Shown here one piece after another: positions 6,617 to 12,293 of a stretch of 64,000 bases of DNA. Numbering within the stretch: position 1 is the first letter of the stretch; each line of letters opens with the position of its first letter. The position numbers and the translations under genes were made by a program. The notes beneath the pieces are model-generated. The model searched no databases. It had not been told where the DNA came from and saw only the letters and a program-made list of their open reading frames with translations. The stretch spans positions 2,162,231-2,226,230 of the forward strand of contig CP058732.1 in assembly GCA_013414795.1 (NCBI GenBank), written 5' to 3'. The stretch comes from Candidatus Kapaibacterium sp. (lineage in GTDB: Bacteria > Bacteroidota > Ignavibacteria > Kapaibacteriales > UBA2268).

Positions 6617-7813
6617 ATGGGCATTGGTATTACTTTCCTTGGTACTGGTAACTACCAAAAGGTAGTATATAGTTACAATAACACAACGGTCGAAACTGAA
6701 TACTTTCCTTTTGCGTTTTGTAAATTCTTTAATTTAGATGAAATTTACATTGTACTAACCGAAGAATCTAAACAAAAGCATTTTGGGTCTATTGAAAAAC
6801 TTTTTCAATGCTGTGACAATCCCCCAAACCTTCGCCAGGTTTCCATTCCTCGAGGTCAAAATCAAGATGAACTATGGACAATTTTCGATATCCTTTCAAA
6901 CTCGCTCCCAGAAAAAGCCTCGATTTATTTCGACATCACTCACGCTTTTCGCTCTATTCCATTTATGATTTTTGCTGTTTGTAATTTTTTGACTGTGGTG
7001 AAAAATGTGAAAATCGAAAAAGTTGTCTACGGTGCTTACGAATCAAAAATTAACAATGTGGCTCCCGTTTTCGATTTGACCCCCTTCCTCGAGTTAATTA
7101 ATATGAGCACTGCTGTAAATGAATTCCTTCGCTTTGGCAATTCTTTGTCCCTTAAATCTATTTTGAAAAAAATCCACTCCGAGTCGTATAAATTCAACTT
7201 GCCCGAAAAACCAAAATCCCTTACTCCTTTTGCAGATACTCTTGCGAATCTTACCAATGCACTTTCGATTGCCAGAGTAGAAGAAGCAATCCGTCATTCA
7301 AACAAACTTGCACAAAAAATCCAGAATTTCACCCAAGAAATTACACACTTTAACCAAACAAAACCCTTCTCCTTTTTGTTGAACAAAATACAAGACCGCT
7401 TTTCAAATACCGCTCTCAATTTCCAGAGTATTTTTTCCAGGGATGGTTTTAAAGTCCAGTTAAAATTGCTCGACTACTACATTGAAACTGAACAATATTT
7501 TCCCGCTATAACTCTTGCCCGTGAAATTGTTGTTTCTTTCATTGCTTGTAGAAATGGTCTTAATCCAAAAAAAAGAGACCACAGAGCGGAAGTCGAGCAA
7601 CAACTTGGAAAATTGGCGAAAGACTTTGAAAACCAACAAAACCTTAATAAGTATGAAAATGATTTGGGCAGACTTTGGTCTATCGTTTCGACGACTCGAA
7701 ATGATATAAATCACGCTGGAATGAACGAAAATCCAATGGATACAGCCAAAGCAATTAACAATATCAACAAAGTTTGCTTACTCGTTAAAGACTTTATTTC
7801 AAAGTACGATTGA
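6617..7813 (+). CDS. csx1: CARF-HEPN effector (Csx1/TM1812-like), probable cOA-activated RNase
   Basis: FLGTGNY, DITHAFRSIP (DxTHG-like), YGAYE; C-terminal HEPN RNDINH. Confidence 0.88.
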   Translation: MGIGITFLGTGNYQKVVYSYNNTTVETEYFPFAFCKFFNLDEIYIVLTEESKQKHFGSIEKLFQCCDNPPNLRQVSIPRGQNQDELWTIFDILSNSLPEKASIYFDITHAFRSIPFMIFAVCNFLTVVKNVKIEKVVYGAYESKINNVAPVFDLTPFLELINMSTAVNEFLRFGNSLSLKSILKKIHSESYKFNLPEKPKSLTPFADTLANLTNALSIARVEEAIRHSNKLAQKIQNFTQEITHFNQTKPFSFLLNKIQDRFSNTALNFQSIFSRDGFKVQLKLLDYYIETEQYFPAITLAREIVVSFIACRNGLNPKKRDHRAEVEQQLGKLAKDFENQQNLNKYENDLGRLWSIVSTTRNDINHAGMNENPMDTAKAINNINKVCLLVKDFISKYD

Positions 7814-8603
7814 CTACCTCCAACATTCCAAATCCCAACCCATTCTTCTTTCCAATACCACACTCATAGGCTACTTTTTGCATTTCCACATCAGCAGTAA
7901 TTTTTATTGGGCACATAAATCCTTTCACCCTTGTTTCCCTTTCGCTTCCCTCGGCTATTGTTACCATTTTGCTGACCCCCTCTGCTCCGCCTTTGCTTCG
8001 AATGTATTCCCTATCCAATTCAATTCTCAACTCGCCATTGTATGTTGATTTATTTACAATTTCATATTTCTTCAAAAGATTATTTGCCAAAGCCTCCTCA
8101 ATTCCTTCCTCGTCGACTCGGTAAAAATGTTCATAGACTTTCCCGTTAAGTTCCTTCATAGTCGATGTAACTGTTGGCGAAAGCATAATGTAATCCATTT
8201 CCCTCACAAATTTCGGGTCTTCAATATGTTCAATGTTTTGCACTCGAAATTCGCTACTCACCGACCGATTGGCAATAATAATTCTACTTCGCTTGAAAAT
8301 TCCGATGATTAAATTTTCTACAATTTCGGTTTTGAAGGGAGACGAGAAAAGAAACCAGCAGTTCCTGGTTCCTTTTATAATTTCCCTTTCTTGTTTGAAA
8401 TCGTGCACAAATAGTCGAGAAAAAGTAAACAACTTCAAGCGTTTTCCATCCCGAGCAACAAAGCCTTGGTCGTGCAACCAACTTGCAAATTCGGGGGAAC
8501 TTTCGTAGAAAATCTTGTACAAAGCAGAACTCAAAGCATAATTATAATTGATTGGGATTTGAAAATCCTTTTTGGTAGATTTCAACAAAATTTTCAATCT
8601 CAC
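7794..8603 (-). CDS. cas6: Cas6 crRNA-processing endoribonuclease
   Basis: LHDQG..K.FTFS and C-terminal GIGKKNGLGFG Gly-rich loop; GTG start. Confidence 0.95.
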   Translation of the reverse strand: MRLKILLKSTKKDFQIPINYNYALSSALYKIFYESSPEFASWLHDQGFVARDGKRLKLFTFSRLFVHDFKQEREIIKGTRNCWFLFSSPFKTEIVENLIIGIFKRSRIIIANRSVSSEFRVQNIEHIEDPKFVREMDYIMLSPTVTSTMKELNGKVYEHFYRVDEEGIEEALANNLLKKYEIVNKSTYNGELRIELDREYIRSKGGAEGVSKMVTIAEGSERETRVKGFMCPIKITADVEMQKVAYECGIGKKNGLGFGMLEVVNRTLK

Positions 8604-8988
8604 AAACGTTCTCCAAATATTAAAATCAAAATTAACACAACGAAAACAAAAAAAAGCAAAAATTTGAAATTCATCGTTTTCAACTAAGTGTTTAATATTT
8701 AATGAATTGAAAAAATTTTTCTCGAAAAAATAGTCTCGAGATGGGGAGAAATTTTGGTAAAAATTGCCGATTTAGGCAGGACTAAAAAATGAATATATTG
8801 AAAATCAAGGACTTAACTTGTCTCGAGATGAATTTTAAAAAAAATTTGCATAATTGAAAAAAAAGTAATAATTTAGAAATGTTTTTAAGGGGAAATCCAA
8901 AAGTTCTTTGACAAGTGGAGACTTTTTATAACAAAAAACGGGGAAAAATAGAGCCAAAACCCGCATAGAATCGAAGTCGAGTTTACTG
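8604..8988 (+). promoter_or_regulatory. CRISPR leader and divergent cas6 promoter region
   Basis: AT-rich non-coding region next to the first perfect repeat; two GTCTCGAGATG copies (8733, 8820); IHF-consensus AATCAAGGACTTA (8803-8815); possible TTGCAT-17-TAATTT promoter (8846-8874). Confidence 0.75.
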
Positions 8989-10328
8989 GTTTTAATCGGA
9001 CTATGTTAGGATTACGACCCTTGATTTTATTGTATTCTTGTTCACTAAGTATAGTTTTAATCGGACTATGTTAGGATTACGACTTTTTCTAAGTAGTCTC
9101 TAATTAAAAAATAGAGAGTTTTAATCGGACTATGTTAGGATTACGACTATTGTGTTTTTATTTTTTTTCTAAGTAGTCTCTAATTAGTTTTAATCGGACT
9201 ATGTTAGGATTACGACTGAATATTGATTTTCTCTTTTTCTTGAACTGGTTGGGTTTTAATCGGACTATGTTAGGATTACGACTATTTGCCTAAAGGGACA
9301 ACTGAAATCCAAAACGCTGGGTTTTAATCGGACTATGTTAGGATTACGACATTGGATCGATCTGCACAGGCAGGAAAAATTCCTGCCAGTTTTAATCGGA
9401 CTATGTTAGGATTACGACATTTACAAATTTATTTTTTGTTTGACTTTTTTTCAAGTTTTAATCGGACTATGTTAGGATTACGACTCAAACCAACAAAATC
9501 AAACGTTAACACTACAACGTTTTAATCGGACTATGTTAGGATTACGACGTTACAAATAACAAAAACAACTTGAAAAAATTTAAATAGTTTTAATCGGACT
9601 ATGTTAGGATTACGACTTGTTGGTTTGATTGATTTTGTTGGTTCATAATAACAGTTTTAATCGGACTATGTTAGGATTACGACTGAATAGCCGATAATAA
9701 AAAACTAATCACGTCGACGGGGTTTTAATCGGACTATGTTAGGATTACGACTTCAAAAATACAAAGAAAAAAACTCGATTTCAACGTTTTAATCGGACTA
9801 TGTTAGGATTACGACTAATAACACCTATACTTTGTTAAACATATCCCCTGGTTTTAATCGGACTATGTTAGGATTACGACTTACAATTGCTTTTGCTTTA
9901 ATTGGTTGACGGTAGTTTTAATCGGACTATGTTAGGATTACGACTCCCTATTTGCAAGCATTTGTCTTTTTCAATGGTTTTAATCGGACTATGTTAGGAT
10001 TACGACTTATCTAAAAAAGATAATGACATAGCAAAAATTTCAAGTTTTAATCGGACTATGTTAGGATTACGACGATAAAGAAGTGGTTATCAATCTATTA
10101 AAAGAATAGTTTTAATCGGACTATGTTAGGATTACGACGAATGCTTCGTAATTACTTTTCAAATATTTTCCAGTTTTAATCGGACTATTTTAGGATTACG
10201 ACCTTCGTCCACGCCATCCTCTTTTTAAGGCTTGGGTTTTAATCGGACTATTTTAGGTTAATGACAACGTAGGGGTGTAATGCTTTACACCCCTAAACGT
10301 TTTAATAGAATTATGTTAGGATTACGAT
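8989..10328 (+). CRISPR. CRISPR array, 21 repeats (30 bp, GTTTTAATCGGACTATGTTAGGATTACGAC) and 20 spacers of 32-39 nt
   Basis: 18 identical repeats, then increasingly degenerate copies at 10173, 10236 and 10299; leader on the left gives + orientation. Confidence 0.98.
10269..10295 (+). repeat. GTAG-type REP-like palindrome forming spacer 20
   Basis: GTAGGGGTGTAA-TGCT-TTACACCCCTA. Confidence 0.75.
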
Positions 10329-10335
10329 TGTCATT

Positions 10336-10386
10336 GTAGGGGCGAATGATTATTCGCCCCTACCTCGAATGATTATTCGCCCCTAC
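10336..10386 (+). repeat. GTAG-type REP palindrome plus partial tandem copy
   Basis: GTAGGGGCGAATGATTATTCGCCCCTAC (10336-10363), then CGAATGATTATTCGCCCCTAC (10366-10386). Confidence 0.8.
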
Positions 10387-10416
10387 TTTTTGATTGGATT
10401 GTTCTGGTGTTACACA
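10387..10416 (+). CRISPR. Cryptic, highly decayed 22nd repeat
   Basis: TTTTTGATTGGATTGTTCTGGTGTTACACA matches the repeat at 17/30 positions without gaps; 8 of the 13 mismatches are transitions. Confidence 0.55.
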
Positions 10417-10436
10417 GACAGGGATGTCTGTGCTAC
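10413..10436 (-). repeat. Third GTAG-type REP palindrome
   Basis: Minus strand reads GTAG-CACAGACA-TCCC-TGTCTGTG. Confidence 0.75.
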
Positions 10437-10472
10437 TTTTTTGGCTTTCCAGGTGTTTTTAAATGCTTTTTC

Positions 10473-12293
10473 TTAAAATAGTTGGAACTTGTAAAGGATG
10501 AAATTGACAAGGAGATAAAAGATAGAGGCAATTGTTAAGCAAATATTTTCGTGAAACTTTCTTTTGGTGAGGAACAAATAGACAAGAGCAACAAACACAA
10601 AAACAGAAATACTTACAAAGTAATTCATACTGAAAATTTCGATTGGAACCACTTGTCCAATATTATTGTACCAAGTTTGAATTAACGGAAAAATTGGCAA
10701 TGGTATAATCCACCCGACGCTACTTTGGGCAAGAACCCCAAAACCAACCATAAGAAAAGCCCAAAACGAAACTTCCTTTTTCAGAACTAACTTGTAGAAA
10801 GCAAGGGAAAGCATCAGACCCAATGGAATTGTTAACCAATAATTGTTCGGAAATGCAACCATCGGGAATAAACCAATTATGAATCCGAGAAGAAAACACC
10901 TAAAAATGAATTTTTCGTCGTAGTCCCATCCCTTGATTAATCGAAAGAAAAATATTGGAAAACCGACAGAAATCCCACCAAGCACTTGATATACAATCGA
11001 TACTTTTGCAACAGAGTACGGATCCCAAACTAAATTAATATTGACTGTCAACGAAGTCAAAATAATAACATATGCAAGAAGAACAGAAAAATTCCTTGCC
11101 TGAATATTTGCTGTACCAATAATTTTAATAGGATCCCAAAACAAACCAAAAACCAAAAGCAAAAAGGGAAAGCCAGTCAATGAGGCTTTAACTTCCTCTT
11201 GATTTGTAAAATAATAAGAATAGGCAATTTGAACAGAAAATACAATTAATGCAAGAAGTATTTGATTAAATCGATTTTTTAATTCCAAGGTTTCGTACTG
11301 AACAAAGTAATAAAAAGAAAAAAGTGCGACAAAAGAAATAACTGGGGATAGGAAACGCAAGGTTATCAAGAAGGCGTCACGGTAATCTATGAGAAAACTT
11401 GGCAAAGGAAACCTATAGACCCAATTAACTATATCCTCGGGGTATACAAAACTTAAAATAGTAAGCGAAAGCGAAAGTATCAGCACAATTGAAATTTCCG
11501 CTTTAACCTTTATGGTAGTGTTAAGAAAAGACAAAATGCGTTTGCTTACAAAACCAGCAAATCTACCAACTTCGTCCACCAAGTCGCCCGCCAAAATCAA
11601 CCACAGAGGCACTGTAATTACTGTCCACATAGTTTGGGACAAAACTTTTATGTTTTCTTGAAAGTTGGCAAAATTTACTGTGGAAGCATATGCAAAGTTT
11701 AAACCTAAAACGAGAAAAGGAATAATATTTCGTATCTTGAATGGTAATTTGACGAGAGAAATGCCAAGAAGAAGCAAAAAGAATATAATAAATTTTGATG
11801 CAATCTTGATTATTAACATCAAATCTGCTGGAACAAAGGGAAAAGGCGGAAATTGAGCAAGAGAGAGTGAAGTTAGAGCTATCACCCAAAATTTGTTCCT
11901 ACCTTCCTCAAATCGATATGCCAATGGAACTGCAATTAGGACTTGCGTTGCCAAACTAATATATGGATGTACAATTGCAATTGTGGTAGACAAAGCGAAA
12001 AACACCACATACATTAAAATTGCTATTTGAAGCAAAAAGGGTACTTCATGAGTGTAAACCAAAAAGACATTTAAAACGAAAGCGAAGGATAACGAAATCA
12101 ACAAAACGAAATAAAAATTCGACAGAGTTGTTACTTTTATGTCAGTCGGAATAGCAAACAACCATATTACACTAATCAAAGGGATTAGAAGAATTAATAG
12201 CAATGCAATATTTCCGAAAAATTTATCCTCTTTTAGATACTTAAATATTTGCAAACTTTCCAAAAGCCTTTTGAATTTGGAAAGAAAACCCAT
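10473..12293 (-). CDS. Hypothetical polytopic membrane protein (606 aa)
   Basis: Long ORF made almost entirely of hydrophobic segments; no recognised motif. Confidence 0.8.
   Translation of the reverse strand: MGFLSKFKRLLESLQIFKYLKEDKFFGNIALLLILLIPLISVIWLFAIPTDIKVTTLSNFYFVLLISLSFAFVLNVFLVYTHEVPFLLQIAILMYVVFFALSTTIAIVHPYISLATQVLIAVPLAYRFEEGRNKFWVIALTSLSLAQFPPFPFVPADLMLIIKIASKFIIFFLLLLGISLVKLPFKIRNIIPFLVLGLNFAYASTVNFANFQENIKVLSQTMWTVITVPLWLILAGDLVDEVGRFAGFVSKRILSFLNTTIKVKAEISIVLILSLSLTILSFVYPEDIVNWVYRFPLPSFLIDYRDAFLITLRFLSPVISFVALFSFYYFVQYETLELKNRFNQILLALIVFSVQIAYSYYFTNQEEVKASLTGFPFLLLVFGLFWDPIKIIGTANIQARNFSVLLAYVIILTSLTVNINLVWDPYSVAKVSIVYQVLGGISVGFPIFFFRLIKGWDYDEKFIFRCFLLGFIIGLFPMVAFPNNYWLTIPLGLMLSLAFYKLVLKKEVSFWAFLMVGFGVLAQSSVGWIIPLPIFPLIQTWYNNIGQVVPIEIFSMNYFVSISVFVFVALVYLFLTKRKFHENICLTIASIFYLLVNFILYKFQLF

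Follow-up and report, generated by a model that had tools for sequence, protein, structure and literature searches.

CRISPR arrays can have conserved trailer ends and degenerate terminal repeats, and paired arrays may flank one cas operon. The locus described here resembles such paired arrays in its conserved oldest spacer, its mutated last repeats and a trailer which is identical across samples; it differs in that the oldest spacer is a self-type REP palindrome and the probable terminator is itself a REP. An inverted second array closing in the same REP block is new here.

GTAG-tagged REPs and BIMEs were described as clustered, footed extragenic palindromes, which are often located at the ends of transcription units and have been proposed to be RNA elements or terminators (Di Nocera et al. 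2013, PMC3733652). TnpA_REP proteins of subclass 2.4 are characterized by the motifs NH[IFV]H, WQ and YIxNNP and by a REP-derived insert between HUH and Y, and their REPtrons contain long and double-foot REPs (Quentin et al. 2018, PMC6006769). In vitro, E. coli Cas1-Cas2 was found to integrate beside an inverted repeat prone to cruciform formation, and binding of Cas1 to cruciforms has been described (PMC5389526).

Compared with GTAG-tagged REP/BIME clusters (PMC3733652), the palindromes at this locus are likewise footed, extragenic and clustered, but one copy is found in the spacer frame between CRISPR repeats and there are very few copies outside the RAYT locus. With the subclass 2.4 REPtrons (PMC6006769), the genome has in common the GT[AG]G foot, the double foot (in P2, see below), the RAYT motifs, the in-frame REPs between HUH and Y and the REPs flanking the RAYT gene. 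Unlike there, REPs are situated inside and directly behind a CRISPR array; the word 'CRISPR' occurs 0 times in that paper. The likeness to off-target Cas1-Cas2 integration near palindromes (PMC5389526) consists in palindromic DNA beside sites of Cas1-Cas2 action, whereas a full, active-looking array with its own leader is present here and its origin at REPs is unsupported. In the literature searched (papers without their supplementary files), no report of REPs lying inside a CRISPR array or closing one was found.

Hairpins and repeats at the old end of array A1

The window (the whole stretch of 64,000 nt which was analysed) originates from a hot-spring bacterium with two mirror-image CRISPR arrays, A1 and A2. 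According to profile matches, A1 is part of a type III-A locus. Genes for Cas10/Csm1, Csm2, three RAMP proteins, Csx3, a TM1812/DxTHG protein and Cas6 are contained in the window, and those for Cas1, Cas2 and an NE0113-type protein are located directly upstream of the window's cas genes. The leader of A1 is on the left side; its end was fixed using the one metagenome contig found with this repeat (L021, covering cas6, leader and two repeats only), which has the same cas6 and leader but other first spacers. Repeats 1-18 of A1 agree fully with the 30-nt consensus, and R19 has one mismatch. A2 is situated inverted on the other side of the cas operon and has 41 repeats (genome 2155420-2158114). 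The 60 spacers of A1 and A2 have lengths of 32-41 nt. Two scans of genome contigs gave 0 matches of this CRISPR repeat in any other species genome, and an Rfam search over 8600-10700 gave one chance-level match only. The features are listed in Table 1.

Table 1. Features around the old end of array A1 (positions in the window; P1 to P3, hairpins; R20 and R21, repeats 20 and 21).
Feature	Position	Strand	Remarks
cas6 gene, at the end of the type III-A cas operon preceding A1	7794..8603	-	Pfam Cas_Cas6_C 2e-24, Cas6_I-A 1.2e-14
Leader of A1	8604..8988	+	from ~8715 on ~98% identical to the A2 leader
CRISPR array A1	8989..10328	+	21 repeats (30 nt each), 20 spacers (32-39 nt)
R20, degenerate, 4 mismatches	10236..10265	+	start of the block common to A1 and A2
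Spacer 20: REP hairpin P1 (10269-10295) with 3-nt flanks	10266..10298	+	only spacer common to A1 and A2
R21, last recognisable repeat, 4 mismatches	10299..10328	+	
TGTCATT, then double-foot REP P2 (10336-10363)	10329..10363	.	palindrome of P2 perfect; feet GTAG and CTAC
Partial tandem copy of P2 (23 nt; loop, 3' arm and foot)	10364..10386	+	
Repeat-like segment, 17/30 matches	10387..10416	+	homology to the CRISPR repeat not established
REP P3 (10411-10436; stem-loop 10413-10432) and T-run (10437-10442)	10411..10442	+	GTAG foot of P3 on the minus strand; A1/A2 block ends approximately here
Convergent 606-aa ORF	10473..12293	-	without Pfam or NCBIfam match

Spacer 20 consists of AAC, the 27-nt GTAG-footed hairpin P1 and a second AAC. 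P1 has a stem of 11 bp and a folding energy of -17.9 kcal/mol, and equally good folds were obtained in 0 of 200 shuffles. The folds of P2 and P3 have -20.4 and -13.2 kcal/mol, respectively, and P3 is followed by six T. A GT[AG]G foot on a stem-loop of 20-40 nt is present in P1, P2 and P3; both feet are found in P2 and, additionally, in the A2 copy of P1. Extra 23-nt half-P2 units occur once in A1 and four times in A2. For comparison, 645 other spacers were used, 587 from the large second array of this genome (see below) and 58 from the two III-A arrays. The longest perfect stem among them has 9 bp and was found in a single spacer, which belongs to the 58 III-A spacers, as against 11 bp in spacer 20. 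Among the 587 spacers of the large array, there was neither a perfect stem > 8 bp nor a GTAGGG or CCCTAC motif. The repeats flanking spacer 20, R20 and R21, match the consensus at 26/30 positions each. P1 alone among the three hairpins was shown to be in true spacer position.

An earlier note on this DNA, made from the letters alone, had listed most of these elements, namely the 33-nt hairpin as spacer 20, a spacer-sized 35-nt unit after repeat 21, a 23-nt partial duplication behind it, a third palindrome with a minus-strand GTAG foot, and repeat decay around the hairpins. All of them were confirmed, with the coordinates as given in the note: the 35-nt unit ends in P2, the third palindrome is P3, and R20 and R21 are the decayed repeats (four mismatches each vs 0 in 18 repeats). 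The note had further read the repeat-like segment as a cryptic repeat and the whole as repeat-REP-repeat-REP-repeat-REP. The count of 17/30 matches was right, but it is not significant against shuffles. A score of at least 17/30 is reached at 3.1e-4 of the genome positions. In 7% of local shuffles, the highest score among the 122 trailer offsets is 17 or more (P ~0.07), and a local alignment of the segment to the repeat gave P = 0.32. When the segment was considered as the downstream repeat of the 35-nt unit, P was ~0.003 to 0.07, depending on the offsets allowed. Thus, repeat-REP-repeat-REP is solid, but the third repeat is suggestive only.

If the segment were a heavily decayed third repeat, P1 and P2, and possibly P3, would all have been taken up as spacers. 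The P2 unit does have the size of a spacer, and without the 23-nt duplicate the segment is in phase, the match then corresponding to ~0.003 over 10 admissible offsets. However, considering the values over all trailer offsets and by local alignment, and an overlap of 6 nt between P3 and the 3' end of the supposed repeat, such a serial capture is regarded as very unlikely. As another candidate origin, the segment was compared to the flank of a longer P2-bearing element of the same-genus genome G005 (see below); this was rejected, as 70% of random genomic 30-mers score equally.

The REP family and its transposase gene

The genome contains one RAYT locus at 2.652-2.654 Mb. The RAYT gene (genome 2652938-2653654, ORF P0001) is intact and encodes 238 aa. 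P0001 matches NF047646 (REP-associated tyrosine transposase) with an E-value of 5.8e-18 and 65.2 bits; the 80-bit cut-off is missed because the REP insert divides the match into two stretches. For Pfam Y1_Tnp, 22 bits were obtained (cut-off 23). The motifs NHIH, WQ and YIMNNP are present in P0001, with REP hairpins in frame between HUH and Y. By these motifs and in-frame REPs, P0001 fits TnpA_REP subclass 2.4. Approximately 26 GTAG-footed hairpins are found around the RAYT ORF and in frame inside it. A RAYT gene flanked by related palindromes, for which the earlier note had asked, is present, and it is interrupted by them as well. Neither of the two findings that the note had named as refuting it applies (single-copy palindromes in a genome without RAYT; an insignificant repeat match together with only an ordinary terminator in relatives).

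The hairpin types of the RAYT cluster resemble P1-P3: one has the stem of P2 and another has the CAGAC/GTCTG core of P3. Half-REP tandem copies like those of P2 are present in the cluster, too. At its edge, there is a P1-like copy with the same AAC...AC flanks, which is the closest copy of P1 (6/27 positions differ). By their GTAG-footed hairpins, the RAYT gene with its related hairpins and the dispersal of P2 and P3 in relatives, P1, P2 and P3 are identified as genuine REPs belonging to a family linked to RAYT.

A tandem duplication with a period of ~700 bp comprises the N-terminal half of this gene and the region upstream of it (genome 2652238-2653654, L003). The first copy runs into REPs without a catalytic C-terminal half, and the second is the intact 238-aa ORF.

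Apart from the RAYT cluster, GTAGGGG...CCCCTAC hairpins are confined in this genome to the trailers of the two III-A arrays and two solitary sites, one of them ~9 kb from the cluster. Dispersal of the palindromes, whose copies the note had wanted counted genome-wide, was seen for P2 and P3 in relatives; the own genome has these two solitary sites. In the stretch of the solitary site near the cluster, directly upstream of the RAYT/REP cluster, genes for a PLD-SNF2 helicase and an Eco57I-type methylase are located (L002:4854-11773; genome 2644854-2651773). The large second array (G000:C1:569943-608854) has 588 repeats of 30 nt, 587 spacers of 34-39 nt and one 100-nt unit, and adjoins a second cas1 gene. 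It ends in an ordinary bidirectional hairpin terminator, with neither REPs nor terminal repeat decay. Therefore, the REPs are specific to the III-A arrays and are not a property of array ends generally.

In the same-genus genome G005, the stem pattern of P2 gave 23 matches vs 0 for a reversed control. In G007, P2 lies immediately at the 3' end of the RAYT gene. P3 is dispersed in several other genera of the family and forms inverted doublets in G031; in both G005 and G031, the REPs are situated between genes. For P1, no copy was found in 129 other family genomes by a search in which at most 6 candidates per genome were scored. P2 additionally forms the centre of a larger dispersed element of G005, which measures ~110 nt, has conserved flanks and occurs in both orientations (20 loci, L042-L061).

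This distribution bears on an explanation in which horizontal transfer of a defence locus brought the REPs along from a donor rich in them; they would represent donor background, with no interaction between CRISPR and REPs. The near confinement of the REP family to defence loci in this genome (the two III-A trailers and the 2.64-2.654 Mb stretch), the many dispersed P2 copies in G005 of the same genus and the absence of the CRISPR repeat from the other species genomes scanned would all fit. Yet the spacer frame of P1 is left unexplained by it and no donor locus was found, and hitch-hiking of this kind is considered unlikely.

The block common to both arrays and its possible history

The old end of A2 is formed by the same block as that of A1, from the first degenerate repeat to the T-run behind P3, with 205/214 aligned bases being identical. 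The two blocks differ by a 69-nt copy-number change, A2 having three more 23-nt half-P2 units. The leaders of A1 and A2 are ~98% identical, and of all 60 spacers only the REP spacer is common to both arrays (A1 spacer 20, A2 spacer 40). Past the block, the A2 trailer continues with a second P3 with T-run and a diverged P1-like hairpin. The A1 trailer was recovered with 0 differences in contigs from 4 metagenome runs of 4 studies, and the A2 variant is present there, too. Since the same block closes A2, it points to one ancestral, inherited event and not to repeated capture at A1. The first of the mechanisms offered in the note, that Cas1-Cas2 repeatedly captured REP hairpins here, became less likely on these grounds. 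The most economical history to be read from the alignment is that a module of leader, repeat, P1, repeat and trailer was duplicated, and that each copy then grew alone. It would be an example of the duplication of a whole leader-array-trailer at the single-spacer stage, which bears on the origin of paired arrays.

In our preferred history, to which we give an even chance, P1 was an ordinary first spacer, P2 and P3 were REPs of the usual kind in the trailer, one of which acted as terminator, and the whole module was then duplicated. The ancestral array would have been located beside REPs of the genome's own RAYT subclass 2.4 family, and a REP unit would have been integrated by Cas1-Cas2 like any other spacer. 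Integration as the first spacer is favoured because the P1 unit has 33 nt and is placed between two real repeats, as Cas1-Cas2 integration gives; insertion into an existing spacer is disfavoured because the unit would then be ~60 nt, about double. P2 and P3 need no explanation by capture, since REPs normally sit between transcription units; both would be extragenic trailer REPs, and P3 with its T-run would terminate the pre-crRNA. The leader-array-trailer module would subsequently have been duplicated in inverted orientation across the cas operon, and the copies would have gained 19 or 39 private spacers.

A crRNA of P1 is probably prevented by the mutated flanking repeats, because the changes in R20 fall in the 3' part, which provides the 5' tag of the next crRNA. 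The suggestion of the earlier note, that the repeats decayed to silence self-targeting, goes further than needed, as decay at a trailer end requires no such cause; yet the large array is without terminal decay. Against the preferred history, it has to be stated that no source of a P1 protospacer was found and that a second independent case was not seen in the 12 arrays of relatives analysed. Furthermore, the additional REPs of the A2 trailer, i.e., the second P3 and the P1-like copy, fit plain colonisation by REPs equally well.

Such colonisation, driven by RAYT, would mean that REP transposition placed all three hairpins, including P1, and that the trailer acted as a landing pad for REPs between transcription units. 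The A2 trailer is indeed a REP cluster with at least 5 full hairpins and half-copies, P2-like half-REP tandem copies occur in the RAYT cluster as well, and the usual place of REPs in G005 and G031 is between genes. Nonetheless, P1 occupies a unit of normal spacer length (33 nt) between two real repeats, where insertion would have approximately doubled the length, and there is no RAYT gene near the arrays. Colonisation as the source of all three hairpins is unlikely, too. If the position of P1 were a mere coincidence of REP colonisation, it would be a curiosity of one hot-spring lineage.

Highly improbable is a birth of the array at a REP cluster, in which Cas1-Cas2 would have integrated off-target beside cruciform-prone REPs and seeded the array. 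Both R20 and R21 clearly represent the repeat of this array, and the leader is a long conserved unit, which argues against this, although the sole spacer common to the two arrays is a REP and the work on E. coli Cas1-Cas2 provides an in vitro precedent (PMC5389526).

Beyond the preferred history, a more far-reaching version was considered, which is distinctly unlikely in our estimation: REP DNA released by the RAYT would be a natural substrate of the CRISPR integrase, P1 a fossil of REP excision in vivo, and the REPs would have been co-opted as a boundary or terminator travelling with the duplicated array. Two copies of one spacer-sized palindromic strand could anneal to each other, forming a duplex with short overhangs. 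To our knowledge, the movement of REPs and the role of RAYT in the cell are still unsettled. A REP in spacer frame, if true, would be rare natural evidence for free REP-sized DNA being open to uptake by Cas1-Cas2. The arrangement as such is real and unusual. Its parts, REPs of subclass 2.4 and a CRISPR array of type III-A, are known; it was apparently inherited once and belongs to one lineage, and any function of it is hypothetical.

Predicted termination, arrays of relatives and further spacers

In a consensus scan, P3 and its T-run were terminator-like on the array strand in both trailers, with the same match occurring twice in the A2 trailer. The P3 stem is separated from the T-run by 4 nt, a suboptimal spacing for a terminator. 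P3 with the T-run looks like the intrinsic terminator of the array. With termination at P3, as predicted, the pre-crRNA of A1 would stop short of the convergent 606-aa gene, and that of A2 short of a peptidase gene. Of the earlier proposal that the hairpins are kept to terminate the pre-crRNA, only the part concerning P3 is plausible, by its terminator-like form in both copies.

For the arrays of relatives, 20 Cas1 loci were searched with a simple finder, which gave 14 arrays in 13 loci. Two short contig-end fragments (L028, L029) were dropped, and 12 arrays in 11 loci were analysed. A footed REP in a spacer or flank was found in 0 of these 12 arrays, those of the same genus being mostly cut by contig ends. 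In ~414 inter-repeat segments of relatives (one run of N was left out), a perfect stem of at least 9 bp was present in five and a GTAG-footed one in 0. In these 12 arrays of 11 loci, the comparison of trailer ends with relatives, which the note had proposed, brought no second independent case. Concerning a protospacer of P1, 0 viral contigs matched the P1 pattern; when only the stem was used, there were 9 matches in viral contigs, all of them without foot.

In a relative of the same family (G020:C105, L036 ~2207-2636), two copies of a CRISPR repeat are located between two arrays, and each copy is broken up by a small hairpin, which is rich in G+C and has a stem of 6 bp. Compared to the REPs described here, this is a different kind of palindrome inside a CRISPR array.

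No significant self-targets were found for the other spacers of A1 and A2. Spacers 2 and 3 of A1 (window 9084-9182) have 23 identical bases in common, which suggests overlapping protospacers. In A2, spacers 30 and 31 are identical over 36 nt and represent a duplicated unit. Spacer 26 of A2, counted from the leader (~2156.4 kb), is identical to two spacers of the large array, at 598853-598881 (29/29) and at 608665-608691 (27/27), and therefore the same target was recorded by two CRISPR systems.
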